DNA of 64,000 bases, from positions 1,116,001-1,180,000 of the forward strand of contig AP026131.1 in NCBI GenBank assembly GCA_030295235.1. The letters run 5' to 3'. The notes under the pieces were generated by a model that was not told the origin of the DNA, searched no databases, and saw only the letters and a program-made list of their open reading frames with translations. Source of the DNA: Fistulifera solaris. Taxonomy: Eukaryota. A program made the translations under genes and the position numbers. This document shows, in pieces, positions 29,429 to 48,425 of this stretch. The number at the start of each line of letters is the position of its first letter. Position 1 is the stretch's first letter.

Positions 29429-31089
29429 TTAGCAGGTGATCTCCGTAGTCGGAACTTCGGTGTAGTTACTTTTGCCCCGGCGTAAACCATGTCGAAAGAA
29501 ATGGCGGACAATGAAACCAACCAAGATGATTGCAAGTAGCACATACCAGCGTACTAGAATGGACCCACGAGGTTGTGGCTGGATCCACTCACCATGGACC
29601 TGCAACAAACTCTCTCCATGTGAAACAACTACATCATCGTCGATGATCGGTTCCCAACCATCCGGGTCGATCGTTGACGGATCAGGAAACTCGTGTATGA
29701 CAGCCATACTATCATTTGTCTTGAATATAATATCATAACATGAACCATACAGTTCTTCACTAGGCGTAAACGGATCTTTGGAGATTTTCGGGAGCCACCC
29801 TTCGTGAAACGCCCTCAAAAAGTCCCATTCCGCAAAAGCACCTCCTTCCATTTTCGCCGTCCAGTAAAACCATCCGGCACTAAGACCCGCACCTGCCGCT
29901 TCGTACGAAACAATTTGCGCTTGGGCAAAGTGTTTCAGAAACTCTGTCGATCGGGAGAAAGTTCGCGGTCCAGAAAGGCTGCCGTGCCATTTGCGGCGAT
30001 ACTGTCCATGATGACTCGTAACACAGCCACCGGTAAAGAATCTACCGCAACGCTCCACTCTCCAACAATTCGAGACACACCACGAGAGACTTGTTGTCGG
30101 TGCGGTTCGTAACAACATCCGATCAGGTCACGATGCTCGTTCTGACACGTATAGGCAATGTGTTGCCGTGGACTCAGAGCGCGGGGATGCTCCGCAAACA
30201 CTTGATAAAAGTGCGAGTCCAAAAAGGTATTCGCATAGCGGGTAGGATCGAGCCACCAATGACCATTGTTGAATGAATCCGATGAGAACATATCACTGGC
30301 GTAGATGGAAACCTTCGGGCCCATCGTGCTTCTGACAATATCCAGTCCTTCCTCTAGGAACGATTCGTACACTTCGCGATCGCAGTCTAAAAATGGTTCA
30401 TTCAGTAGACCAAAGCCGGTGACGACATCGTCCAAGCCGTCTGCGACAATTTGTTCCGTAATTTCCCGAATCACCTGCAGACTGCGCTGCACATGCTCGG
30501 GATGTGTCGACCATCCTTCACAAGTAGCGTCCTTCAACGTTTGCCCCGAATTATCAAAGCCATTTTGTGAGCCCGGTGCGGTGTGAATGTCGGGCCAAAC
30601 TTGGAGCCCGAGTTGTCGCGACCACGCACAGAGACGTTGAAAGTATTTCCAGCGGTCCCCCACCACCCAAGGTTCGCCTTTGTGCTTATTTCGGAGAATC
30701 CAATGAGGGAGAGGAACACGAAGATGTGTCACTCCGGCGTCTTTGAGATCTTGGATGTCTTGAAAGGCAATAAAGTGCTCAAAGTGGTAATTGAGCCATT
30801 GCTCGGCGGTTTCTTCTTGGGGGAACGCTTGCCCTAACGTGTATTCGTCCATCGGATAATCGGGGCCATCGACCGTCTCCATCAAAAACGGATGACACCG
30901 CTTTAAATCACACAGTTGATAATCTTCATGATGCTTTGGTGGGGCACTGGCTTGCCCAGGATACCAACAGAACTCACCCCGCAGATGACAGTCGGTAACC
31001 GCGAACTGATACGGCGTAATGTAACGCTCCAGAACCAACCAACCGCCTATATTGACTCCTCGAATCCAGGATGGACGAACGTCGTGCAT
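29429..31089 (-). CDS. GH5 exo-1,3-beta-glucanase-like with C-terminal TM helix, frameshift ~29940
   Basis: IRGVNIGGWLVLE, DIHTAPGSQNGFDNSG, LLNEP, DSHFYQVF, IVGEWS, GWFYWT; TM WYVLLAIILVGFIV. Confidence 0.88.
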
Positions 31090-31333
31090 GGTTGTGTGTC
31101 AAAGTGTTGTTTGTTGTGAAAAAGTCGCTTTGACACCAATGCGCTATTTGAAAATGCAACGGTGCAGAGAAAATTATGGAAGAAGTTTTTTTTGTGAAGG
31201 GTGTCTCGAGTCTCGAGTGGTGTCGTCGGCTGGTTGTTTCGCCCAGAAGGAACTCGCTGGGAGTATGTTCATCGGTTAGTAGTGATATATTATTACAAAG
31301 AAACTCCCCGGAACTAGGTGCACCACGTCGATG

Positions 31334-31651
31334 TGTTAGAAAATGCAAATTCCACTTCGGCGATTCACGAAACTTATCCGTGAACCAATACAAACACTAC
31401 GCAGCAATCAGCTTATGTAGGGCCGAACTCGATACAATAACTTGTCAATAAAAGGAGAGTAAATAAAACTTCCGTCTATTAACTGGATTGTTTCAAGAGA
31501 ATGAGCTCTTGAAACCATCAAGGATAACGCCGGCCCATGTTACCGCTTTTACTAACTTTCACATTGGCCCGCCTGTTCTTTACTGCGTCAGTTTTATCGT
31601 TCTCATCTTCACTACGGTTAGAGATCGTTTCAGATTCGCGAACTTCCAACA
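31334..31651 (-). repeat. 3' LTR (318 bp)
   Basis: Near-identical to 36925-37239; the pol stop codon lies inside it. Confidence 0.95.
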
Positions 31652-34600
31652 CGCTCCTCGATCTGAAACGGTTCCTCGCTGTCTAGAGAGTTAACGTGGG
31701 CGTGTCCCATGATAACTGACCTTAGTTTCAGAAACAAACTTCCTTGCAATGGTTTTGTGAAGAAATCGGCTATCATCTTTAAAGTGGGGCAGTGTCGGAT
31801 GGTAATTCCCTCAGCTTTCACCCTGTCCTTAATAAAAAAAATAACGGATGTTGATGTGTCGCGATTTCGGTCCCGCGAGAAGTCCTTCCATTTTTCTCAA
31901 GCTTGATTGCGCTTTCGTTGTCTTGCTCGAAAATGTTTTCCTCAATTTTGTAACCTTGAGCTTCTAAAAACATCTTCATCCATAGCGTATTCGGTAGGTA
32001 ATCACTAGCCAACCAGCTCAGCTTCAGTGGAACTCTTGGTGTTCAACTTTTGTTTCGACGACTTGCAGATCAACCCTCCGGTTCCGAAGAGATAACTCCA
32101 CCAGTATGGCTTCGCATGTCGGGGTGAACAGCGTACGAAGCGTCTACCCAAGTTCGCATTTTCCCCAGATCGTCGGCTCCAATGATGTACCCAAGGTCGA
32201 AGCGTTCCTTTTAAATATTCCAACACTCTCTTCAGTTTTCGCTCGTCCTCTTCCGTGGCCTTAGAAACTCGAGTGCATAGGAAACATACTGGCAGTAAGA
32301 TGTCCATTCTGGCACGAGTTGCCACATACAAAAGCTTGGCCGATACACTGTGGAAACTATCATTTCGTTTCTTGTCGAGGCCTAGGCGAGGTCTCGTCCA
32401 CCTCAAACAAATAATGTTTAGCAGGGCGTGCTCGCAGTTCTCGAAATTTCTAAACCTGATTCCGCAATGGCCTCTTCTAGGTAACGACCTCATGCTGATG
32501 GTTGCTGTGTTGTTTCCGTTGTAGACTACTTTCATACCAAGGAACTTCGTGTTCTTTTCCACGTCTCACCGTCATTTTCCCGAAGCTCGATTCGATGTTT
32601 GAAATAACTGCTGACACTACATCCGGATCCTTGTGGGATACTTTCATGTCGTCAACATACCACACGATTGTGCATTGCGATCCATTAAAATCGCAGTTCG
32701 CCACGCATTGGTCGTGAGGGATTCAGCTCAAAACCCATGTCTTGTAGGGTTTCCGAAAACATTTTGTACCACAACAGCGCGCTTTTCACGCATCCGTGAG
32801 AGCCTTCTTCAGTTGCACGTAAATCGTCTTCTTTCCGTTCTCTACGCAGACGTAAGGTAGGTACTTTTCGCTCATTTTACAGAGGATTTCCACAGCTTTT
32901 CCGGTAAATTTCAGTATAACAAAATCATCCATCATGGCCTTCAGGTAGGCGCCTGCTACATCGCATATTCCCGCGTCTCTTCCCTCAAAAACGTCTATCA
33001 AGAACGACGTAATCAACGCGTCGGCTGCCACTGTCGGGGATGCGGTCTCAGATTTGTCGTAAAGCGACCTCTGTTTGCTTCCATCGGCCACCGTCCTGCC
33101 TTTCAGGCTTCCGTCTCGCTTTTCTTTCAGTAGATTTAGCGCTCGCGAGGGCGGCTTTCTTTTCGTCCTCGGTTAGCTCACTCGCATATCTTGGTATGAA
33201 CACCGTGAGGTCATCAAGCTGTTGAAATTCCTGTAGGAGTGCGTTCTCTGCTTTCTCTCCGTGTTTGCGCAGGCCGGCTTGCTCTGACATTTGGGTCAAT
33301 ATCACCGCTACCACAACACGTAGCACGGAGTCAGTGACGATACTTTCCTTGACGCTTCGCTGTTGCATTTTGTAGCATACAAAATACATTCCTGCTAGGC
33401 TCTTTGGTGTCGTCGTCGTTCTCGCACGGTTTCTACAAACGGATATTCGGACGCTCCTTGGTCTTCAACCGATGGATCGTCCTCGCCGTGTTTTCCGTCG
33501 CTATACTCGGAAACGCCGTCGCTACTATCATCATTCTCATCTGGTGGGGCGGCATTCGCTCCTGGGACTCCTGTGTCTGTCTCAAGGACGATGGTCGCTC
33601 CTAGAGTAGCCGCTCCTTGATCGTTCGCTCCTTGCTCGCCGGCCACTTCATTATCGATGTGAATTGTGGTGGTGTCTGTCTGAATGTGCGGCTCCGTGCT
33701 CGCTCCTTGGTCCATGGCATCGGTAAATGGGGCATCAAAAGGAGACGCAAGGAAATGGAGTTCCTCGTCGTCGATAGAAAGAAAACGGTCATCCAGGTCA
33801 TGGTCGTCAGCTCGCTCCTTCGTGTGTGGTAGATAGTCCTTGTCGTATTCATCGCCGCCGATCGGCATGTCGGGATCCCATTCAAAAACGAGGCCGGTTT
33901 CCTGAATGGGGGCTGGTCCTCAGCCAAAGCCAGAGCATGGACACGATCGATGGCCGTATCCGGGATCCGTCCGACGCGTTGCCATTGGTGCCGGGTGACA
34001 CGAGCACCGGTGGCGAGGGACATGAAAGCGTAGTCGCCATTGGCATTTCCGCTGGGGCCAAGGGCAATGGCCCCCAGCCGTACGGGAGTGAAGTGTATTG
34101 CTGGGTGTAGTAGGCTCGAAAATTTGTACGTACTCGCCAAACTCCAAAGTCATCTTATTGTAATCGGGAAAACCTGCGCCAGTGACGATCGTGGTGGGGC
34201 TCATGGTATCGGAAACTCCGTCGCGACGGGGAAAAAGATTGAGACAGCGCACAGCATCCTTGACGAGCTCCACGACCATAAGTTTGGGGAGACGCTTATA
34301 CGGCATACCATGCACAGCAGCACGGGTACGCTTCGCGGATGGTGCGAATGGAACGCTCAACTTCACCAACGTGGCTGTCAGCAGGGACAACATCAAGAAG
34401 CACAGGGAGGACCTCATCCTTTATGCAGCTGAACTCGTTGTCGCAGTGCATCCCGTGGACGACAAAACCTCGCGTGCTGTACAAATTGATGGCACGTTTG
34501 GTTTCGTGAAGAATTGTTTTCTTCGACCTGTCGGGAACGGAGGCAAGGGTGCGGTATCCGATGTTGGCAGCGAGATGGTGTGGAAAAAGGGAATTCCTTG

Positions 34601-36477
34601 CACAAACAGAAAATCCGCGCACAAAGTCACGTCACGATGATGTAGAAGAATGGGTGCCGGAATCGGGATAGCTTTGAAAGAGGGCACGTGAGGCGCGTCA
34701 GCACCGCTGGCGTGTCTTTCCTTTCAGCGTTATGACATCAGGCCCATAAATGGCTAAAGCACGTTTGGCTGCCGTCGGTGATCGGAGAGTTCGCGAATGA
34801 AGTTGCTTCGGAGGTACCATTCAAACTCTTCTTCGGAGGGTCGACCTGCAATGCGATAAATACGCCTTGCCTCGTCTGCGGCGTCAATCTGGCGTTTGGT
34901 CCACAGCTTCTTCTGTCCTGCTACGGTTTGAAGTAACGTGTACATTTTAACGGAGGTGCTATCGTTAGGGCTAAAAACGTATAGACCGGAGTCCGCTTCT
35001 TCGAAACGCATTTCTGAACCGTCCAAACGATGAACGATAAAGGCAGGGGACTCGGACGTATCCATGGTGATGCGACAGACACGGCGGACCTCGGCAAGCG
35101 AAAGGATGTTCGCAATCGACTCGGGATTGTACCAGACAGGACCTAGATTCGGGAAATCGCCAATCAGGTTCGAGGGTTTGACTACCGCCCGTTGGTGATG
35201 GCGCGCAGCACTTGCTCACTGGGGGCGGATGTTCGTAAGCATGGATGCATTCCGGAAAACAGAGACTGTGGATTGTGAGTCAAGCAAAATCCAGTTGGGG
35301 TCGATCCCGCTGTCCGAGGGCGGCGTGCAAGGACGAAACCGTGTTGCATCAAAGTTGTTCCGGCTGACGGTCGGGCCATTGGGACAGCGGTTTCGCGAAA
35401 TGACCAGGCTGCTTGCACTTGCTGCAAGTGATATGAGCGAACACTTCGCCCGTTGGTACCAGGAACGACAGTTCCGACTTGGGCAGTAGGTGATGCCGCT
35501 CACTTCGCTTCGCTCCTGTGACGGCACCGGTGATGGCCGTGTTGGTTGTGGAGGGCTTTGCGCGGACTGCGACTGAGAGTTGTTCCGGGCTTGCTGCTGT
35601 TAAAAGAATTCGCTAGCTCGTTCGAAGACTGCCAAAACGCACGGGGTCTGCGTTGCGGATGATGGCAAGTGCAAGAGTCCCTTCCCTGGCCCGCTCATAT
35701 CCTCCGAGGTCGGGCACAGCGTCTGGGTCATCTCGATCGCGAAAAACGTACTCGGCAATGTGGCCGCCGTAGCACTCAATGGCCTCGGCCCATCCACGCA
35801 AGTTCTCGACGTAAGCTTCCACCGATTCGCTGGCGTGTTGTGAACAGTTCAGGAAATTGTACCGGGCGCCGAGGGAGAGAGAGTCCGAGCTTTTTGGTGG
35901 AGTCAAACTGCAACATGATAGACCGAATGTTAGTAAACAACCACACACAATCGGTGTCCTTAGGACGCTGTTTTGTACCCGTCCAGGGCTTTCAATCGCG
36001 CCTTCATAGCGGGGGGTGCACTGCTTCCAACCAGCGGTGAAAGGGCAGGGAGGCTCACTTCGACAAGTTGCTCGTGGTGCCTTTCGACGCTTACAGTCGC
36101 GTTCGTATTGATCTTCCAAACGGTAGCGGTGCATCGTCGGGTGGCGGGGTGGGTGCTGTCAGCACGGGAGCCTCAATTGTTGTTCCAAAAATCGGTGCAA
36201 GGTCCTCGGCGTACGTGATTTTTGTACGCGCGTATCCCTGCAGCTCTTCCATGGTCCTTCCAAAAGACGGTCTGGTCTGGCTCCTCCTGCGGTCTCAAAA
36301 ACGTAACCGTTCATCTCGGCTATTTCTCCTTCGTGAGGGACGCGTTCTTTGGGCTTGGCCGCGGCATTGTCGGCCGATCTTTGGCCTCGGTTGCGGTTGC
36401 GGTTCCTTCCTCCTCGTCCAGCTGCGGCAGCGGTCGCCGGGTGGTACCCTGCTCAGTGGCCGGCTTGGTTTCGCTGT

Positions 36478-36850
36478 TCATGATCGGTGCCGGTCTCGTC
36501 GGGTCTGTGCGAGATGTTGTTGAGCTCTGTAGACTTGGAGGTTCAACTCGTTTCGCAAATACACCCGTGTCCGAGTTACTCGCGTTACAACTCCGCTACC
36601 GATACTGCTCGATGATCTGGGGGCGCCCACGGGCCGGTCCAAGTTGCAGGGCGGTTCACTTGGTTTTCGATGCATTTCGGTCGCCAATCTCAAACACAAA
36701 AACCTCTTCGAACTCGCCCGAATCGTCCACACCTTGCGTTCGTCTCGCGTTGTTGATTGCCTCGACTTGTGCGATGAGGGCGTTCTCTCGGAGTCGTAGA
36801 CTTTGTAGCTCTTTGATAATGGCAGCAATCCTTTCGTCGCCGTCTTGCAT
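36478..36850 (-). CDS. Small extra ORF of the retrotransposon upstream of gag (coiled coil plus KOW/SH3-like part), frameshifted
   Basis: MQDGDERIAAIIKELQSLRL...FEIGDR...GVVTRVTRTRVYL...; its TGA overlaps the gag ATG (ATGA 36481-36478). Confidence 0.55.
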
Positions 36851-36910
36851 CAGCTGAGAGGACGTATAGGTGTCGAAAACAAATTCGAAACAATAGAGAA
36901 AAATAATCTT

Positions 36911-36924
36911 TTCTCTTGAAACAA
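36911..36924 (-). promoter_or_regulatory. Non-tRNA primer-binding site TTGTTTCAAGAGAA, complementary to LTR 37079-37092
   Basis: Directly abuts the 5' LTR end; lacks the TGG start; perfect 14-nt complement inside the LTR. Confidence 0.7.
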
Positions 36925-37239
36925 TGTTAGAAAATGCAAATTCCACTTCGGCGATTCACGAAACTTATCCGTGAACCAATACAAACACTACGCAGCAATC
37001 AGCTTATGTAGGGCCGAACTCGATACAATAACTTGTCAATAAAAGGAGAGTAAATAAAACTTCCGTCTATTAACTGGATTGTTTCAAGAGAATGAGCTCT
37101 TGAAACCACCGCGGACAACGCCGGCCCATGTTACCGTTTACTAACTTTCACATTGGCCCGCCTGTTCTTTACTGCGTCAGTTTTATCGTTCTCATCTTCA
37201 CTACGGTTAGAGATCGTTTCAGATTCGCAACTTCCAACA
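36925..37239 (-). repeat. 5' LTR (315 bp)
   Basis: TGTTGG...CTAACA on the element strand; matches 31334-31651. Confidence 0.95.
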
Positions 37240-37677
37240 CGATGATGCTGTGTTTTCTCGCCAGAATGACGGCAGCGCAGTCACGCCACCGTTCAGTCAC
37301 TCTTTCATGCGCAGTAAGGATAAAGGTATTCCGTGCGTTCGCAACTTGAACCTTGCGAAAAACGCAACTTGACGTCATGTACACTTTGTCACCAAAGCGG
37401 CACTCATCCATCGATGTGATTGGTTTAGCATAACACAAAATTTCTGACTCATTGGTAAGCTTCCGATCTCCTTGAAGTTCACCGTGATTTCGACGTCAGC
37501 ACGAGACACTACACTTTATTCTATAGACACTTGGAAGCTCGATCGGTCCGTCCATCCGGAAAAACATCGAGCTGATGCGAAGATGAGGCGCAATACAACC
37601 AAAAAGACTGGCTCTCCGTTGGCGTGTTGTATTCCACAATAAATTCCTTTCCATAAAAGTTTTCATCAATAGCCGAC

Positions 37678-39594
37678 ATGATCTTACGAAGCGCATTGTT
37701 GCTGCTCACTTTGGCCGCATCGGAGGCATTTCTGATGCCGCAGCGCACGAGACACACACCTTCGTTACGTGTGAGTATCGGCCTCGGGCCGGAGCAAGAT
37801 CAAGAAAATGCCAAGGAACAAGAGCTTGTTTATGAGATTCCAAATCACGAGGAATATCGAACGTCACGTCGTTCCAAATTCGATGAGCAGTGCGATCAGT
37901 GGTTTGCCGCGCTCCTGTCGGGGGAGGATAGTCCGTGTTTGGGGGTTCTAGCCGAACAGGCACGAGCCAAATTAGAGACCCCGGTGCCTTTGGTGAATGA
38001 TATCGAAAAAGATACCAGCGACGAAGAATGGACGCCCTATGTTAGTACGAGATTGCCCTGGACTCCGTTAGTACCGGCCTTTGGTTTGGAGCAATTCGGT
38101 CTCCCGATTCCGCGACGTAACGCCGAGACGTGGAGGCACTTTGATGTGCCCGGAATGGTGCAACAAGAGTACAGCGGAACCGCACAGCCAGTGTCGCGAG
38201 AGGATTTTCAACAACAAATCGAGCGGGCCGGTGTGTGGTTAGAGGATGATGCCTGTGAAGCTCGTTTGGTGTATGTGAACGGATACTTTGCGCCAGAGCT
38301 TTCGAAGACGACATCGGATGTATACAATCTAGAGGAGCTTCCAAAAGACGAACATTTACAAAAATGCTTGGGACGATTCACCGATGGTTTTACGGATGAA
38401 TTAGCGGCGGCTGTACCGAATGGAGAGCGCACCGAAACGCTTTATTCGAAATTGAGTTTGCCGGATCACAATCTCGGCGATCCGACCAGTCAGTTTGCTA
38501 TCAACACCCAACAAGGCACGGCGTGCTTTGCTGCCTTGAATACGATTAAGACGCGAGGTGTAGCTGTCGTACGTTCAAAGTCGGTGGTCGAAAAACCGGT
38601 TCTAATCATTCAGGCCGTGACACCGTCGGCGGGTGGATCACAAGAGAATGGCAGCGGTGTAGCGCTGCATCCTCGTGTACTCGCTGTGGCCGAGGATCAC
38701 TCACGGCTGTCACTGGTACAGTCTTGTTTGGATTTGAATGATGATTCGACACCTAAACCCAAGCTCTACAATGGCTACACACAAATATTTGTGGGCGCTG
38801 GAGCGAATGTGACCCATTCGTACCTGGAGGAATCAGGTGGTATGGTTACAGCTTGTGTGGAAAAGGGAGACGAGGAGTTTGGTGAAGGTGAACCAAAGGC
38901 TCGGGAAATTGAGGCGGCTCGGCCTCCTCTCAAAGATACACATCTGGAAGCCATCGATGTTCACGTCACTGGACAAGAAGGAAGATACGAAGGAACATTA
39001 CTGAGTGTCGGTGGAAGTGGTCGCATTCGAGTCGCGCACTCCCTTTCCTTACTTCAGCCCGAGACAACTGGGATAATTAATGGCTTTTCTCTGTCCGGCG
39101 GCACACAAAGGACCGACATGAAAACAAACATCCATCATATTGCTGCAGGCGCGAAGAGTGAACAATTGCAAAAGAACATGATCGGTGGTCGAGCTGTCGG
39201 TGCTTTCCGTGGAAGAATTCGAGTGGAACAAAGCGCGCAGCAGACCGATAGCGCACAGCTGTCGCGTACAGTCCTGCTCAGTGACAAGGCTCGCGCGTGG
39301 GCGGTTCCGTCGCTGGAAATTATAGCCGATGATGTGCAATGTGCACATGGAGCGACGATTTCCGATTTGAGTGAAGAGGAACTGTTTTACCTGAGATCGC
39401 GCGGTCTTGATCGAGCTTTATCAAGAAATTTGCTCATGTATGCATTCGCTGGCGACATCTGTAGCTGTGTGGATCCAGCTCTTTTGGGAAGTGTCGACAG
39501 CAAAGAAGGATTACAAAAGCGAATGATTCGAAAGCTAGAGAATCTGGTTCCACAAGGTGAACGCGCTATCACGGGTGAATTTCAAAGTATTTAG
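37678..39594 (+). CDS. sufD: Plastid Fe-S cluster assembly protein SufD
   Basis: Bipartite presequence LAASEA|FL; ETWRHF, RLVYVNG, FAALN, FRGRIRV, AQQTDSAQLSR, PSLEIIADDVQCAHGAT, LFYLRSRG. Confidence 0.93.
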   Translation: MILRSALLLLTLAASEAFLMPQRTRHTPSLRVSIGLGPEQDQENAKEQELVYEIPNHEEYRTSRRSKFDEQCDQWFAALLSGEDSPCLGVLAEQARAKLETPVPLVNDIEKDTSDEEWTPYVSTRLPWTPLVPAFGLEQFGLPIPRRNAETWRHFDVPGMVQQEYSGTAQPVSREDFQQQIERAGVWLEDDACEARLVYVNGYFAPELSKTTSDVYNLEELPKDEHLQKCLGRFTDGFTDELAAAVPNGERTETLYSKLSLPDHNLGDPTSQFAINTQQGTACFAALNTIKTRGVAVVRSKSVVEKPVLIIQAVTPSAGGSQENGSGVALHPRVLAVAEDHSRLSLVQSCLDLNDDSTPKPKLYNGYTQIFVGAGANVTHSYLEESGGMVTACVEKGDEEFGEGEPKAREIEAARPPLKDTHLEAIDVHVTGQEGRYEGTLLSVGGSGRIRVAHSLSLLQPETTGIINGFSLSGGTQRTDMKTNIHHIAAGAKSEQLQKNMIGGRAVGAFRGRIRVEQSAQQTDSAQLSRTVLLSDKARAWAVPSLEIIADDVQCAHGATISDLSEEELFYLRSRGLDRALSRNLLMYAFAGDICSCVDPALLGSVDSKEGLQKRMIRKLENLVPQGERAITGEFQSI

Positions 39595-41114: not shown

Positions 41115-42176
41115 AGGTGTCGATCCTCGGATTATTTCGACATGAAATAAAAAAACTCTCAACAAGTATTTCAGAATCATCATTGTTGCGACTTTACTTA
41201 CCCGTATTATTATTATATTCGCAGTTGAGTGACAATGGACGGATGCGAGAGACGCAAAACGAAACCCTTTGTTGTTCGGTTCATTCATGACTACTGTACA
41301 ATCCAGTCTTGGCTGGCGTAAACCAACACTCCGTTTGATAGTGAAAATTTCAAGGTGTCGATCCTCGGATTATTCGACGTGAAAATAATAAAAGAAACTC
41401 TCAACAAGTAATTCAGAATCATCATTGTTGCGACTTCATTTACCCGTAATTTTAATAAAAGTTCTCAGTTGCTCAGTTGAATGACAATGGACGGATGCGA
41501 GAGACGCAAAACGAAACCCTTTGTTGTTCGGTTCATTCATGACTACTGTACAATCCAGTCTTGGCTGGCGTAAACCAACACTCCGTTTGATAGTGAAAAT
41601 TTCAAGGTGTCGATCCTCGGATTATTCGACATGAAAATAATAAAACAAACTCTCAACAAGTAATTCAGAATCATCATTGTTACGACTTCCCTTACCCGTA
41701 ATTTTAACAAAAATTCTCAGTTGCTCAGTTGAATGACAATGGACGGATGCGAGAGACGCAAAGAGAAACCCTTTGTCCATTGGGCCAGTTGTGTTTCTCT
41801 AACTCGATTAGGGATTCGGTTCTCTTGTAGGGATAGGACGTAAGCATAGTGAATTCTACTCAGTAGCCTTTTTTTTGTTGTTCGGTTCATTCATGACTAC
41901 TGTACAATCCAGTCTTGGCTGGCGTAAACCAACACTCCGTTTGATAGTGAAAATTTCAAGGTGTCGATCCTCGGATCTCAACAAGTAATTCAGAATCATC
42001 ATTGTTGCGACTTCACTTACCCGTAATTTTAATAAAAGTTCTCAGTTGCTCAGTTGAATGACAATGGACGGATGCGAGAGACGCAAAACGAAACCCTTTG
42101 TTGTTCGGTTCATTCATGACTACTGTACAATCCAGTCTTGGCTGGCGTAAACCAACACTCCGTTTGATAGTGAAAT
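41115..42176. repeat. Four-unit tandem repeat (~220-250 bp units; unit 3 has a ~100-bp insert)
   Basis: AGGTGTCGATCCTCGGAT at 41115, 41353, 41605, 41959; shared GACAATGGACGGATGCGAGAGACGC and CATGACTACTGTACAATCCAGTCTTGG blocks. Confidence 0.92.
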
Positions 42177-42428
42177 TTTGAGGATTATCGAAAAATATGG
42201 CGCCATAGCCAACAATAATCTGCGTTGAACTTTACTTATGTTGTTTTCACGTACCCCGAAAATCTGGTAGATTTATGTTGATGACACCGCAACCGCAATC
42301 GAACACAACAAACACTGCGCCAATTCGATTTGCCCCTTATTACAGCAGCCAAACCTGGATCTTTGTTGATCTCTCTTTGCGCTTACCCCTGTAATCTGAA
42401 ATCGTCCCTCGTCTGCTGGGAACTTACC

Positions 42429-43410
42429 ATGCCCTTTCACGAACGCGACGAAGAGCAAGAAGCGGCCCTCAGTGAAGCACTCAGCATTCTTCCGAACCTT
42501 TTGACGAAACGCCGCAAGATTTTGGACGAGCGCGAAGAAGAACTAAAAAAGGCATTCGAGAAACTGGAAAGGGAGAAGCAGAGTATCGGCTGTGGAAACG
42601 ACAGTGATGTTATTCATCTGAATGTAGGAGGTACTTTGATGGCGACTGCGCGCAGTACGCTTACCTATGTGGAAAGCTCCATGTTGGCGGCTCGGTTTTC
42701 CGGGCGCTGGGACGAAAAGTATCGCGAAAGATAAGAACGGAAACTTTTTCATCGATCAGCCGGTTGAGTTGTTTCAGCCTTTGATCGACTATATTCGAAA
42801 CAGGCAGAGTCATACGCCTTTAGCAATGCCATTGCAGTCTCCAGGTTGGAGTGAATTCGGTCCTATTAGTCAAAATAGGAAATATGTTGACTTCAAGCGA
42901 ATGGTAGAATATTTTGGTGCTACTCTAGGTATTTTCCCGGTTGAACTGAGAGACTTTACGGCTGCCGAAAGCGAATGCCTTGCTGTGACTGGTCCGTCCT
43001 CGTTCTTCAAAGTTGCATTTGATGAGTGGAAGATCTGCGGGCTGGTTCCGTTGGGACATGACAGGAAGATTACAGGATTCGAAGTGAAGATCGGTGAAGC
43101 TGTTAATCTACAAATCGGATGGAATGAAGACTCGATCTATACCAATACAGCTGTCGGCGGTCATGATTGCTCGATAGCGCTGGACGTTGCGAGAGGTGGG
43201 ATGCTATGCAATATTGACTACTTCGAAGCAATAGGAGACCCTATCCGGAAGGGGACGGTGGTAAAATGCAGGAATTTCGGAAAAGAGTGGTTCATTGACG
43301 GGGAGAAAATTACTGGAGCTTGGAGCAACCACTGGGACGCTGCCAGCCCTGTACCGGCCATATCCGGCAAAGGCGAATGGACGATTACGGCGATAGAAAT
43401 TGAGCCCTAG
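42429..43410 (+). CDS. Coiled-coil/BTB (KCTD-type)/SPRY-like protein copy 1; +1 A frameshift ~42716
   Basis: DVIHLNVGG, SMLAARFSGRW, FFIDQP, LQIGW, PAISGKG; GACGAAAAGTAT versus GACGAAAGTAT in paralogs. Confidence 0.85.
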
Positions 43411-43909
43411 ATGTGAGCGCTTCCTTAAGTATACACTACTTTCAGTTATGTGAGTTAAAGCAATTAAAAATTGCAACACCGCCTGTCTAGTAAAGACAGT
43501 TGCATATGTACTTTATTTATTAAAAATTTACGTCCTCGCTGATACTTGCGTGGGCCCGTCTTTGATTGACGTTGGAAAAGCAGAAAGAATCTTCTCATGG
43601 AGTCGCATCCTCGACGTGATTCGTTAGTGCTTTCGCACAATACGGGTACGCGTGATGATGATTATTCGTGTTCAGGGTCATCGTCAGCCGGTGGTTTCCT
43701 GCAGAGGATATTAAATTTTATACTTTGTACGTACATCGCTGTAGCGTATTACTACCTTGTAAGTAAATGGTTGTACCAGCACAAAACCAAATCGGTTTAT
43801 CGTCAATATGTTGTTCGGATGACTTTTCGTGCTGTTTCGTGTCCTGCCCCAGTTTCTACTTTAAATTCCATGATTGTAGCGGGTAGTAGCGGGTATAGCT
43901 CAAATTGTC

Positions 43910-43924
43910 GACTGGATTTCAGTC
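43910..43924. promoter_or_regulatory. GACTG-N5-CAGTC dyad (also 47021-47035, 62031-62045, 63003-63017)
   Basis: Palindromic arms conserved while spacer varies; all four lie 200-480 bp upstream of BTB or HA start codons. Confidence 0.55.
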
Positions 43925-44133
43925 ACGAAACACAAAAGTATCTTTTTTTCCGACGCGACGCGACGATTGCGACGATGATGCGACGAATAAAACGCGAATG
44001 CGGTGATAGTGATGCACAAGGATCACATTCAATGCTACTTGGTATTTGATATCTCTTTGCGCTTCTCAATTCTCCCTCGTTTGTTGGGATATAAATTTGG
44101 AAGGTCAAATCAGCTCTATAATCATTCATCATC

Positions 44134-45105
44134 ATGCCCGTACACGAACGCGAGGAAAAACACGAAGCTGCTCTGGATGAGGCGCTCACCAATTTGCCGA
44201 ACCTTTTAGCGAAACGCCGCAAGATGTTGGATGAGCAAGAAGAAGAATTGAAAAAGGGGTTCGAAAAATTAGAAAAGGAGAAGAAGAGTCTCGGCTGCGG
44301 AAAAGATAGCGATGTCATTCATCTGAATGTAGGAGGTACTTTGATGGCGACTTTGCGAAGCACACTCACTTACGTCGAAGACTCCATGTTGGCAGCTCGA
44401 TTTTCAGGACGTTGGGACGAAAGTATTGCTAAAGATAAGGACGGAAACTTTTTCATTGATCAGCCCATCGAGTTGTTTCTTCCAATGATCAACTTCATTC
44501 GTAACAAACAATGTGAAACTCTTTTGGAGGGCGCTCCAAGCTCTCCTTCTTTGGAAACTTTCAATGACGACGAGTTGAAATACGGTGATTTCAAGCGGAT
44601 GGTGGAGTACTTTGGGATGACTCCAGGCATATACCCTGTCGAACTGGTAGACTATTCTACTGCGAGTAAGGAGCGTCTTGCGGTTTCTGGTACATTATCT
44701 ACTTTACAACTTGCGTTTAATGAGAGGACAGTTTGCGTGCTGCTCCCATCAGGACATTTCAGACAAATCAAAGGGTTTGAAGTGAAGATTGGCGACTCCG
44801 TGAACTTGCAACTTGGATGGGTGAAATCGCCAATTGTCGGAAATACCGACGTTTGCAGTAACGCACAATCGATAGTGCTAGATCTTGCGAGAGGTGGGAT
44901 TTCTTGTCAAGGTAGTCTTGTTCCGGTCGGTAATACTATTCAGAATGGAACTTTTGTTAGATGCAAAAATTTTGGGAGAGAGTGGTTTGTTGATGGAGAG
45001 AAGATAGTCGGGCCTTGGGAGAAAACGTTGACGCTTCAAGGCGTCGTGCCTGTGATATCGGGCAAAGGAGAATGGGCGATTACTGCAGTGGAACTGGGGC
45101 CTTAA
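44134..45105 (+). CDS. BTB/SPRY-like protein copy 2 (intact, 323 aa)
   Basis: Same motifs, uninterrupted ORF. Confidence 0.9.
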   Translation: MPVHEREEKHEAALDEALTNLPNLLAKRRKMLDEQEEELKKGFEKLEKEKKSLGCGKDSDVIHLNVGGTLMATLRSTLTYVEDSMLAARFSGRWDESIAKDKDGNFFIDQPIELFLPMINFIRNKQCETLLEGAPSSPSLETFNDDELKYGDFKRMVEYFGMTPGIYPVELVDYSTASKERLAVSGTLSTLQLAFNERTVCVLLPSGHFRQIKGFEVKIGDSVNLQLGWVKSPIVGNTDVCSNAQSIVLDLARGGISCQGSLVPVGNTIQNGTFVRCKNFGREWFVDGEKIVGPWEKTLTLQGVVPVISGKGEWAITAVELGP

Positions 45106-45516
45106 GTCCTTAGTACGTCACGTCGCTTACAGCGCCAATGGACAAGTCTGAATGGAACGAGTCTCGGCAAGGCTTAGCTTATAACTTTACATCTTTACGT
45201 TCCCTATTGAGTCGTCTGCCTTAGATGCTGCTCATCTATACATGGTAAACTAGCGACCGCTGTGATCATCGAAAAAATATTTATGAATGCGAGTTAAGAT
45301 GCGAGTTTTTGTTTGTCAGTTTGGTCATGCTATTCTGCTCCCTAAATTTTCTGCACGTGAAGAAAGACTCCTCTTCCGTTTCATTGGGGTGTTGATGCAC
45401 CCTGTATCTTCGATTTTTCGTTTGGCGTGTAGCTTCATTCTTCAGTTTCCGCTTAAAATTCACCAGCAGCATTCACCACAACTTGCAGCTCGTCGAAGAA
45501 AAGAACCACAATAATC

Positions 45517-46488
45517 ATGAACGAACTTGACAACGAACATGAAGCAGCCCTTGATGAGGCACTCACAAATTTGCCGCATCTTCTCACGAAGCGGCTTAAG
45601 TTGCTAGAACAGCGCGAAGAAGAGCTCAAGAAGTCCTTCGAACGTCTCGAAAAAGAGAAGGAAAGTCTTGGTTGCGGCAAGGATGGAGACGTCATTCATC
45701 TCAATGTCGGCGGCACTCGGATCGCAACCTTGCGCAGCACGCTGACCTTTGTCGAAAACTCCATGTTGGCTGCGAGATTCTCGGGTCGATGGGACGAAAG
45801 TATCGCCAATGACAAGGATGGCAACTTCTTTATCGATCAGCCGGTTGATCTCTTTCTGCCCATGATCGACTACATCCGCGGCAAACAGAACCAGACCCCT
45901 TTGACAGACGCTCCAGAACCTCCCAGTTTGAGTGATTTCGATGACAATGCGAAGAAATTCGGCGATTTTAAACGAATGATAGAGTACTTTGGAATGACTC
46001 CAGGAATCTTCCCCGTCACGTTGGTGGACTATACCAAGGAGGAACAATAACAGCTTGCAGCATCTGACTCCCAGTCGTCCTTCAAAGTTGATTGCGATGA
46101 GTTTAAGATCTGCGGCCTTGTTCCACTGGGACATACACGAAAAATTGCAGGCTTTGAGGTGAAAATTCATGAAGCCGTCAATTTGCAGATTGGTTGGGTG
46201 TACGAATCAATTGATACTGGAACTGCTGTGAGCAGCCAAAGCTATCCACTTTATGTGGATGTCGCGAGAGGTGGTATTGCTTGCAACAAAGATTTTGTGC
46301 CAGTCGATAGCAGCATTCAACGCGGAACCTACGTGAAATGCAAGGATTTTGGAAAAGAGTGGTTCATCAATGGGAAGAAGCTTGAAGGAGATTGGTACGG
46401 CAATGACTCGTGGTTCGTTGAAAGCGTCGTACCTGCCATCTCCGGAAAAGGAACGTGGACGATTACTTCCGTAGAACTGGAGCCTTAA
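45517..46488 (+). pseudogene. BTB/SPRY-like protein copy 3 with in-frame TAA at 46048-46050
   Basis: ORFs 45517-46050 and 46159-46488 are in the same frame; homology continues through the stop. Confidence 0.7.
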
Positions 46489-47462
46489 TGGGTCGATACT
46501 GTTTTTGCTGCTTCCGCAAGTAATCAAGTACTTTCATGGCGTAGAATAATCGTCCCGTAACGTTTAACACTTCATCAAGCCCACATCTTAATTATTTCAC
46601 CGCGACACGATCCTTTGACGCCCACAATAACTCAGCTAATATTTTCATGTGATTTGAGGGTGAAATCGTTGCGCAGAGAATTCTTCTTGATTCGATAGGC
46701 GTACGCAGTTCACGTATATAAAATCAGGGCTGGGTAGATCATGCAGTGCAATTGTCAAGTAACACGCAAAAGGTGCGAGGCAATGAATGATCGTTTCAAA
46801 CCCGGCGCAGCTAGTTCCCAGTTGTGAGCTTCGTACAGCCGACCGAAAAGAAAACGACGGAAATTGTGTTACAGCCTGTAAGTGATTAATGATACATGCA
46901 GCAACCTAGCAGCAAATGACAGAAGCGATTTAGATTCACTCGATCGCATCATCGTCGCAGTTTCATCTCATCGCAAACAGCACAAAAGCGTCCGCGTCGC
47001 AGCGAAACACGATGCACCGCGACTGAAGTGCAGTCGTGGGGAAAAGCGACTACACTTTGGGTCTATAGTAATTACTGCAACTCACAATTTCATCTGGATT
47101 TCAGCATCATGAAGAATCAAGGAGTGCGTTGCAAAGGCTGCTGATAATAGGAACATGTATAGCTGACCAAGCTAGAGAGGAGGAAAAGGAGAAAGGCGGC
47201 TTAGGTTGATTTTGTTGCCGGAATATAAACAGCCTTCGTGCAATACACACCGGTACACAAAGCACTAAGCTGAAAACAGCATTGTTCATCAACACTATAC
47301 AGCTTAAAGTACAAGGCGCACCTTTTCTTGCACGCAGAAAAAGATGACGCAAAAATTTTCTTGCGACGAGTGATGCGGTGCCCCTTTACGTCGCTCGTCG
47401 GACGGGAACAAGCCTTATTTCTTATTCATTCGTTGTGCGTTCGATCATTACCAAAGATAACC

Positions 47463-48425
47463 ATGTCCGTTCATGAACGCGAGGAAGAGCAAGAAGCTGC
47501 TTTGAATGAGGCGCTCACCAACTTGCCGAAACTTTTGACGAAACGCCGCAAGTTGTTGGACGAGCGCGAAGAAGAGCTCAACAACGCATTCGATCGCCTC
47601 GAAAAGGAGAAGCGGACTTTGGGCTGCGGAAAAGATAGCGACGTCATTCATTTGAACGTAGGAGGTACTTTGATGGCTACTTTGCGCAGTACCCTCACTT
47701 ATGTCGAAGACTCGATGTTGGCAGCTCGCTTTTCAGGACGTTGGGACGAAAGTATCGCGAAAGATAAGGATGGCAACTTCTTTATCGATCAACCAATTGA
47801 GCTTTTTCTTCCAATGATCGACTATATTCGAAACCTGCAGAATGAAGACAACTCATTGGGCCCCCAGCCATCTCCAGATGTGTCTGATTTCGATGACGAC
47901 GACAAGAAATATAGGAAATTCAAGCGGATGGTAGAATATTTCGGGCTGCCTCTGGGCGTCTTTCCTGTTGCACTGATGAAAGTTACTACCGAAGGTAAAA
48001 AGCAACTATTGGTTACCGGAGCATTGTCATCCTTCAAGATCTTTGTCCAGGAATGGGGCGTCTTTGAACTGGTTCCGTCGGGACATGCTAGGAAGATTAA
48101 AGGTTTTGAAGTGAAGATTGGAGAAGCTGCAGATATGCAGATTGGTTGGGTGATAAAACCGGTTGTCGTCAACACTGCTGTCAGTGATTATGATGAATAT
48201 ATTGCGCTAGATGTCGCTAAAGGTACCATTACTTGTAATGATGACTTTGATGAGTCGGTCAGTACCTCTGTGCAAAACGGAAAGTGCATGAACTTTGGAA
48301 AAGAGTGGTTTATCGACGGCCAACGGGTTGCAAGCTGGTGTGACTGCTGGGTGACTAAGGGCGCTGTGCCTGTTTTTTCTGGAAAAGGCGAGTGGACGAT
48401 TACTGTAGTGGAACTGGGTCCCTAA
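47463..48425 (+). CDS. BTB/SPRY-like protein copy 4 (intact; short in-frame deletion at VQNG|KC)
   Basis: MSVHEREEEQ start homologous to the other copies; same motifs. Confidence 0.88.
   Translation: MSVHEREEEQEAALNEALTNLPKLLTKRRKLLDEREEELNNAFDRLEKEKRTLGCGKDSDVIHLNVGGTLMATLRSTLTYVEDSMLAARFSGRWDESIAKDKDGNFFIDQPIELFLPMIDYIRNLQNEDNSLGPQPSPDVSDFDDDDKKYRKFKRMVEYFGLPLGVFPVALMKVTTEGKKQLLVTGALSSFKIFVQEWGVFELVPSGHARKIKGFEVKIGEAADMQIGWVIKPVVVNTAVSDYDEYIALDVAKGTITCNDDFDESVSTSVQNGKCMNFGKEWFIDGQRVASWCDCWVTKGAVPVFSGKGEWTITVVELGP

Follow-up and report, generated by a model that had tools for sequence, protein, structure and literature searches.

A primer-binding site complementary to its own long terminal repeat suggests self-primed reverse transcription in a copia-type retrotransposon of a diatom

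What primes reverse transcription in a retrotransposon whose primer-binding site (PBS) bears no resemblance to the complement of a tRNA end? The question is raised by a 5.9-kb element lying on the minus strand of a 64,000-nucleotide stretch of the genome of the diatom Fistulifera solaris (assembly GCA_030295235.1, contig AP026131.1, positions 1,116,001 to 1,180,000; this whole stretch is hereafter called the window, and coordinates are counted from its first base). The element is a long terminal repeat (LTR) retrotransposon of the Ty1/copia type, putatively CoDi-like, with LTRs of 315 and 318 nt and TG...CA ends. The bases that directly follow its 5′ LTR are exactly complementary to a segment located inside the LTR itself, at the predicted start of the transcript, and the same arrangement recurs with other sequences in many relatives. 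Taken together, these comparisons make it probable that the ~14 nt at the 5′ end of its RNA would serve the element as primer, in the manner of Tf1, and this is by far the best explanation of the data presented below. The features on which the argument turns are the following; R and U5 stand for the repeated and the unique 5′ regions, and U3 for the unique 3′ region.

36925 to 37239, minus strand: 5′ LTR, 315 nt, TGTTGG...TCTAACA, delimited as one of a repeat pair and by alignment with the 3′ LTR.
37097 to 37106, minus strand: GTTTCAAGAG, forming the left arm of a hairpin located where U3 ends; the arm pairs with bases 37090-37081, which belong to the self-primer, and is identical to part of the PBS.
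37093 to 37095, minus strand: initiator-like TCA of TCA/TT; +1 is predicted at 37092 from the diatom consensus TCAH(+1)W.
37079 to 37092, minus strand: proposed self-primer, TTCTCTTGAAACAA, located at the start of R and corresponding to the initial 14 nt of the transcript as predicted; inclusion of T37078 lengthens the duplex to 15 nt.
36925 to 37092, minus strand: predicted R-U5, 168 nt, forming the loop from the self-primer to the PBS; placed from the arm position and the LTR end.
36911 to 36924, minus strand: PBS, TTGTTTCAAGAGAA, flush with the 5′ LTR, complement of 37092-37079.
31488 to 31501, minus strand: copy of the self-primer in the 3′ LTR, with a TGA triplet inside, reading ...GFKSSFS-stop.

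Three observations of the initial annotation are borne out by direct reading of the window. The 14 nt flush with the 5′ LTR, at 36924-36911, contain no TGG. Their perfect complement is found inside both LTRs, at 37092-37079 and at 31501-31488, and the duplex amounts to 15 bp when the LTR-terminal A36925 and T37078 are counted. Finally, a TCA stands directly before the LTR copy, at 37095-37093. When the pattern was searched with at most one mismatch in the 64 kb, exactly three sites were recovered, against a mean of 0.09 in shuffled sequences, none of the 100 shuffles reaching three. In the minimum free energy fold of the predicted leader (37093..36900; -62.1 kcal/mol), nucleotides 2-16 are paired with the PBS, and a hairpin is formed at nucleotides 20-59, directly after the primer. 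The z-score of this fold is -6.43 and none of 200 shuffles was equally stable. When the 5′ and 3′ LTRs are aligned, 4 substitutions and 2 indels separate them; all of these fall in U3, none beyond position 131, and positions 132-315, which hold the whole predicted R-U5, are identical in both copies. As a side observation, a CCGCGG site holds three of the four substitutions between the LTRs, and the fourth is located three bases upstream of this site.

Relatives of the element were collected with an alignment of 21 polyproteins (A1), which retrieved 79 metagenome loci whose best Pol segments are 39-67% identical to the relative P0003. Together with the window, these loci make up 80 sources and 445,292 nt, which were scanned for exact inverted repeats of at least 12 nt with a spacing of 40-450 nt. 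In 40 of the 77 inverted repeats found (from 39 sources), the left arm is preceded by CA and the right arm by an LTR-end context; no such pair was seen with the reverse-strand context or in any of 20 shuffles of all loci. After joining six contigs with overlapping ends, the pair was present in 46 of the 80 sources. The left arm is inside the LTR, and the right arm opens either with the terminal A of the LTR or with the nucleotide directly behind it. The spacing of the arms is 66-167 nt, mostly 123-144, and their length is 15 nt in 35 sources, 14 in six, 16 in three and 17 in two. Beyond this common geometry the sequences are highly variable, with 38 distinct PBS 14-mers among the 46 sources, only positions 1-2 and 13-14 being largely constant. 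The full 14-mer is nevertheless a perfect Watson-Crick match to its own LTR in 44 of the 46, and the match extends over 13 nt in the remaining two.

The position of the right arm relative to the LTR end can be judged independently in those elements whose ends are set by two LTR copies. There are five of them (the window element, L002, L021, L039/L040 and L057); all five have an exact 14-nt complement at offset 0, and the PBS sequence differs in each. Repeat pairs in L003, L027, L028, L035, L038, L055 and L056 were rejected as LTR boundaries, being contig-end overlaps or partial repeats, and these loci were left out of this test. A 1310-nt direct repeat in L042 was likewise rejected as an LTR: LTR ends are missing and the LTR start of the element lies between the two copies.

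It may be asked whether the sources that lack the pair speak against its generality. Of 42 sources that contain the N terminus of gag, 35 carry the pair. Among the 34 pairless sources, 27 have no gag N terminus, corresponding to partial contigs or to a 3′ LTR followed by flanking DNA. In six others, which do bear gag, the contig begins less than 650 nt upstream of it; two of these (L008 and L011) show ...AACA followed by a PBS-like TT... sequence, with the arm beyond the contig edge. The seventh, L030, has upstream DNA in which the LTR is not recognisable. Hence no clear counter-example to the pairing is found among the 42 sources with a gag start. A collection of viral contigs gave 22 pattern matches and no confirmed relative. 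Separately from the pair studied here, a 13-nt inverted repeat made of TCCGCTACCTCCA and, 57 nt away, its complement was observed in L036 (2917-2986) and also in L044, L066, L074 and L077; it spans the end of pol and the beginning of the LTR within a single subfamily.

The 5′ end of the RNA can be placed with the help of published diatom promoters. In the available portion of PMC4686930, CAY(+1)A is given for FCP genes, and TCAH(+1)W is proposed as an initiator-like motif of diatoms, with +1 after TCA (PMC4686930). Because this motif puts +1 right after TCA, the transcript is predicted to start at 37092, the first base of the arm. The initiator-like motif pointed out in the initial annotation is thus retained, but not the +1 that had been assigned to A37093. 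Among the 46 sources, the left arm begins exactly after CA in 41, while the remaining five have it start one or two bases before this point; TCAHW is found at the arm start in 39, and the complementarity to the PBS never runs more than 2 nt past the base after CA.

Covariation of the two arms was evaluated on a MAFFT alignment of 37 leaders (A2), in which columns 19-33 face columns 232-246. Within the helix, 93.4% of the cells are paired, compared with 66.7% in shuffles and with 41-54% when the register is slid, even though a few misaligned rows count against the helix. Both sides have changed in 13 of the 15 pairs, and three or four Watson-Crick pair types occur in 9 of the 15. Compensatory cells number 128, against 31.3 +/- 4.5 in shuffles, and none of 500 shuffles reaches 128. 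RNAalifold, applied to the same alignment, returned the primer-PBS helix alone, with 13 pairs, each supported by compensatory changes. These sequences indicate that primer-PBS pairing is under selection across a broad lineage of diatom copia elements. Complementarity in related elements and covariation of the PBS with R had been proposed as checks of the initial annotation; the former holds for 46 of 80 sources, among which 38 variants occur, the latter for 13 of 15 pairs at a level that none of the 500 shuffles matches. The self-priming reading first put forward for this locus therefore finds support in flush complementarity, in compensatory changes and in the location of the partner at the predicted diatom start.

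From these data, a priming pathway may be envisaged. Transcription would be initiated within the 5′ LTR, immediately behind TCA, near 37092. The RNA would then fold back over about 150 nt of R-U5, its 5′-terminal 14-15 nt pairing with the 14 nt located directly after the LTR. The ribonuclease H (RNase H) of the element would cut the RNA at the end of the duplex, by analogy with Tf1. This cut would free a short capped RNA of about 14 nt (14 or 15), with its 3′ OH at the U5 boundary. Extension of this primer by reverse transcriptase (RT) through U5 and R would yield the minus-strand strong-stop DNA, which would be transferred to the 3′ R. During plus-strand strong-stop synthesis the primer would be copied in turn, and the PBS would be rewritten at each cycle from the element's own 5′ end. 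This last step is suggested by the established rule that a retroviral PBS is regenerated from its primer. If the PBS is indeed rewritten in this way, the match would stay perfect while both sequences drift together.

Several points weigh against this scheme. The transcript start is predicted from a motif. The arm is also able to pair with the U3 bases just upstream in 19 of the 45 sources examined; with a more distant upstream start, it would lie inside the RNA and be masked at first by this hairpin. RNAalifold gives no conserved stem-loop resembling the U5 inverted repeat (U5-IR) in A2, an alignment that is poor in its central part. The scan required at least 12 exact matches, so that imperfect pairs would escape it. 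The 46 sources share descent, and because they are so related the cell counts are not independent events. The case against a host tRNA is built on the PBS sequences and not on the host tRNA set. Finally, the window copy is degenerate as assembled, so that this particular copy may be inactive.

With these points in mind, other explanations have to be weighed. In the first, the pairing would be real but would serve the folding of the leader, for instance in packaging, dimerisation or the control of translation, the minus strand being primed in some other manner. Covariation proves that the pairing is selected and not that it primes, and the U3 hairpin of 19 of the 45 sources suggests regulated alternative folds. 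On the other hand, the paired site opens in all instances with the base that directly follows the LTR, which is the position required of a primer 3′ end, and no further site, either conserved or of the TGG type, is found within 80 nt. Moreover, structural helices usually tolerate G-U pairs and mismatches, whereas here 44 of 46 duplexes are perfectly Watson-Crick over 14 nt. Such perfection fits a PBS that is copied from its primer. A role of the pairing outside priming is accordingly considered unlikely.

A second possibility retains self-priming with another geometry: transcription would start upstream of the TCA, with the arm engaged in the U3 hairpin, or the 3′ R copy would pair, in cis or in trans, and be cut. 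The hairpin deserves attention in this respect, and it was absent from the earlier description of the locus. In the window, the LTR primer copy forms the right arm of a 10-bp hairpin, the left arm of which is at 37106-37097; its energy is -15.2 kcal/mol, and one of 100 shuffles of the upstream 30 nt was equally stable. In the 19 sources that have it, the hairpin spans the predicted start, and at most two of 100 shuffles are as stable. The presence of the arm sequence in both LTRs also agrees with such a geometry. However, the complementarity stops exactly after CA in 41 of the 46 sources and at most 2 nt beyond in all, a sharp limit of the kind expected of an RNA end, and its edge coincides with the diatom initiator-like motif. 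Another geometry thus seems slightly more improbable than a structural role. If transcription starts at the arm, the hairpin would exist only in the 3′ copy, which it could mask.

A third possibility is that the primer is supplied by the host, as a tRNA, as a half-tRNA of the kind used by copia, Ty5, Osser and Bianca, or as another small RNA. Half-tRNA primers are indeed known in Ty1/copia lineages, according to the portion of PMC6317226 at hand (PMC6317226). Here, TGG is found at the PBS start in none of the 38 variants, and within 25 nt after the arm in only four of 38 elements. No conserved alternative site emerges, since within the 80 nt that follow the arm even the most frequent 8-mer occurs in only four of 38. 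ARAGORN detected no tRNA gene in the 64-kb window. Each of the 38 PBS sequences finds its match in the LTR of the same element; no single conserved host RNA can be complementary to the whole set, and own-element complementarity in 46 of 80 sources, accompanied by compensatory change, is explained only by a partner encoded in the element. Judged from these PBS sequences, a host tRNA is a very unlikely primer, and host RNAs of any sort retain a very small share of the probability. Lastly, a chance inverted repeat or an assembly artefact, which the many single-base indels separating the window interior from read-derived contigs could bring to mind, is hardly credible and is refuted by the shuffles (0/100 reaching the count), by the arms being unchanged in independent contigs of other runs and by the same arrangement in 45 other sources.

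The comparison with read-derived contigs concerns four runs (X1-X4). No difference is listed at 36911-36924 in the X1 contig, nor at 37058-37105, which covers primer and hairpin, in the four runs. Over 35400-36954, the X1 and X2 contigs agree with each other and differ from the window interior by many single-base indels; the X1 contig has 9 other letters and 21 gaps in this interval. Among the 11 interior differences listed, out of 22, 10 are bases present only in the window. The flank at 37212-37600 matches the contigs with 0-1 differences. Because X1 and X2 agree against the window and the flanks match, the frameshifts of the window may be assembly errors or may reflect another haplotype. 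The LTR is multi-copy in X1, with a summed depth of 61-176; the interior and the larger part of the flank have 17-20. An LTR variant diverging upstream of 37139 is common to X1-X4.

The remaining features of the element and its borders are as follows.

37240 to 37244, minus strand: target-site duplication CATCG, 5′ side, read directly; the same five bases follow the 3′ LTR.
31652 to 36850, minus strand: gag-pol interior, with ATG at 36850, a zinc knuckle, a protease-like LLDSQST, integrase, RT with YVDD, and RNase H.
31652 to 31659, minus strand: putative polypurine tract, GAGGAGCG, short and purine-rich, abutting the 3′ LTR; together with the LTR start it encodes EERVG.
31334 to 31651, minus strand: 3′ LTR, 318 nt, TGTTGG...TCTAACA, delimited as one of a repeat pair and by alignment with the 5′ LTR.
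31329 to 31333, minus strand: target-site duplication CATCG, 3′ side, read directly.

The interior as assembled has a frame with numerous interruptions, in which no stop-free stretch exceeds 186 amino acids. A 128-residue RT fragment of the window has 221 relatives at E <= 0.001, the closest being P0001, with 95% identity over 128 residues. Many of these relatives are polyproteins of 1600-1800 residues, and the named ones come from the diatom Fragilaria crotonensis. With Pfam, RVT_2 is found in the relatives P0003, P0020 and P0044 at 53.8-66.3 bits, for a cut-off of 31.6, and in P0001 at 63.1 bits. The window RT fragment itself scores 18.1 bits (E 0.0021), under this cut-off, and this weak RVT_2 match is the only one that Pfam gave on 15 stop-free fragments of the window element. 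No integrase was detected by Pfam. A 310-residue region upstream of RT, modelled from 28 relatives with a predicted local distance difference test (pLDDT) score of 85.7, was submitted to Foldseek, and the best 50 matches listed were all retroviral integrases, the top one with E 2.2e-9. An A1 profile gave no match among PDB sequences. By tblastn, the window is colinear with the polyproteins of the relatives, in gapped alignments that blur the frames. An integrase fold upstream of RT means that integrase (INT) precedes RT, which is the copia order. The copia assignment of the initial annotation (PR-INT-RT-RH, that is, protease, integrase, RT and RNase H) is thus upheld by an RVT_2-type RT and by an integrase fold located upstream of it in the relatives. 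The TG...CA ends of the LTRs and the 5-bp target-site duplication are in keeping with this assignment. The type of RT and the position of INT rule out membership in the Tf1/sushi group of Ty3/gypsy. The CoDi-like label is more tentative, being drawn only from the diatom host and from the diatom origin of the named relatives.

The end of the polyprotein is closely linked to the LTR. The frame crosses the polypurine tract into the 3′ LTR, in the window (31488-31663) as in relatives, and the junction GAGCGTGTTG encodes EERVG, a motif kept in alignment A1. The relatives P0002 and P0003 end in ...GGFKSSFS, like the window reading across the 3′ LTR. With at most two mismatches, GAGCGTGTTG occurs upstream of the arm in 38 of the 46 sources, the matches in the window 5′ LTR and in three further sources not being true junctions; in these 38 sources, a stop codon is met between 184 nt before and 36 nt after the arm start.

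The surroundings of the element identify its host as a diatom. A neighbouring gene, PRMT5, is 94% identical to PRMT5 of Fistulifera solaris, and the other named matches are to diatoms. The element is flanked by a GH5 cellulase-like open reading frame (ORF; 29938-31089) and by an ORF of the SufBD type for iron-sulphur (Fe-S) assembly (37678-39591). The latter has a long N-terminal extension and starts 434 nt beyond the 5′ target-site duplication. Further away, the intervals 41147-42199 and 42439-48152 contain a tandem array with a unit of ~252 nt, adjoining four diverged copies (68-85% identity) of a 1.4-1.9-kb unit. One ORF in this area (47328-48422) carries a BTB_2 domain.

It is tempting to combine these elements into a single picture, in which self-priming would be ancestral and universal in a widespread lineage of diatom copia elements, would have arisen independently of Tf1/sushi and of the plant TAR lineage, would have its PBS re-copied at each cycle and would use the U3 hairpin as a switch. 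As a whole this picture is possible but doubtful. If it were true, primer and PBS would drift together freely, as the 38 variants suggest, and fast evolution of the PBS without mismatch in these elements would be explained. The elements would be freed from host tRNAs, as well as from defences aimed at tRNA-type primer sites. The hairpin switch would mask the 3′ primer copy, or else cover the primer in transcripts begun at a wrong site. A second unrelated and abundant lineage would show that self-priming is a recurrent solution, and the 38 primer/PBS variants offer a natural series for its study. There may also be a practical consequence. Pipelines that require a PBS of the tRNA type would tend to discard such elements and to undercount diatom copia. 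Filtering by tRNA-type PBS with LTRdigest has been used for a diatom genome, as stated in the available part of PMC7466962 (PMC7466962).

How does the diatom element compare with known systems? To our knowledge, self-priming has been proven only for Tf1. Tf1 also reportedly requires a U5-IR-like stem-loop beside the primer/PBS duplex. In the sections of PMC7175516 that could be consulted, the Tf1 RNA's first 11 bases anneal to the PBS, and RNase H cleaves between bases 11 and 12 (PMC7175516). Beyond Tf1, self-priming is predicted for the Tf1/sushi and Tcn1 groups, as far as the accessible part of PMC6317226 goes; the same part reports that the plant copia families Houba and Osr-1 have been proposed to be self-primed, with a prediction extending to the whole TAR lineage (PMC6317226). 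The statement that the mechanism is known only from the Tf1/sushi group, made when the locus was first described, does not hold in the light of these plant elements, and because self-priming of plant TAR copia was already predicted, the novelty is smaller than first thought. In the literature consulted, no report of self-priming in diatom or CoDi elements was found, subscription journals and supplements lying mostly outside it, which makes this absence uncertain. The main text of the paper defining CoDi makes no mention of a primer-binding site, tRNA, priming or transcription start (PMC2806351).

Among tRNA-independent systems, GalEa elements of fungi are instructive. Within the available text of PMC5445492, these copia elements are described as having a 'Conserved Hairpin Site' in place of a PBS, for which the authors found no complement in the LTR (PMC5445492). 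GalEa resembles the diatom element in being a copia of the same major branch, without a tRNA-type PBS and with a conserved structure at the PBS position. It differs in that, as described in that text, its local palindrome includes the last A of the LTR, while the diatom site is not palindromic and its complement is located about 100-170 nt upstream, in the LTR. Identity with the 'Conserved Hairpin Site' is excluded on these two grounds. The half-tRNA-primed copia elements are also Ty1/copia and also have a PBS that does not start with TGG. Their PBS, however, matches a conserved internal segment of a tRNA and is constant within a lineage, whereas in the present elements it varies at most positions and co-varies with the LTR; with 38 different 14-mers, none of them beginning with TGG, the diatom elements do not belong to the tRNA- or half-tRNA-primed class.

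The closest functional parallel is provided by Tf1 and Tf2 of Schizosaccharomyces pombe and by the Tf1/sushi group. So far as the partly available sources tell, these elements have a PBS that directly abuts the 5′ LTR and is the complement of the bases with which their own RNA begins, as is predicted for the present one, and their RNA folds back over R-U5, a fold predicted here from the sequence. Their PBS has no tRNA complementarity, and that of the diatom elements never starts with TGG. The diatom element nonetheless belongs to another superfamily, with INT upstream of an RVT_2-type RT; its duplex has 14-15 bp compared with 11 in Tf1, no conserved U5-IR-like stem is detected, and many members have the additional hairpin between primer and U3. 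Self-priming of Tf1 has been demonstrated experimentally, whereas that of the diatom element is read from sequence. The CoDi elements Blackbeard and Surcouf of Phaeodactylum tricornutum are likewise diatom LTR elements of the copia type. As for the plant TAR elements Houba and Osr-1, according to the accessible part of their description, they are Ty1/copia, they have a PBS without tRNA complementarity and a self-primer is predicted for them (PMC6317226). Their hosts are green plants, while the elements described here are CoDi-like and inhabit diatoms. Set beside these systems, the diatom element does not represent a new mechanism; it is a new lineage for a rare mechanism that was already known.

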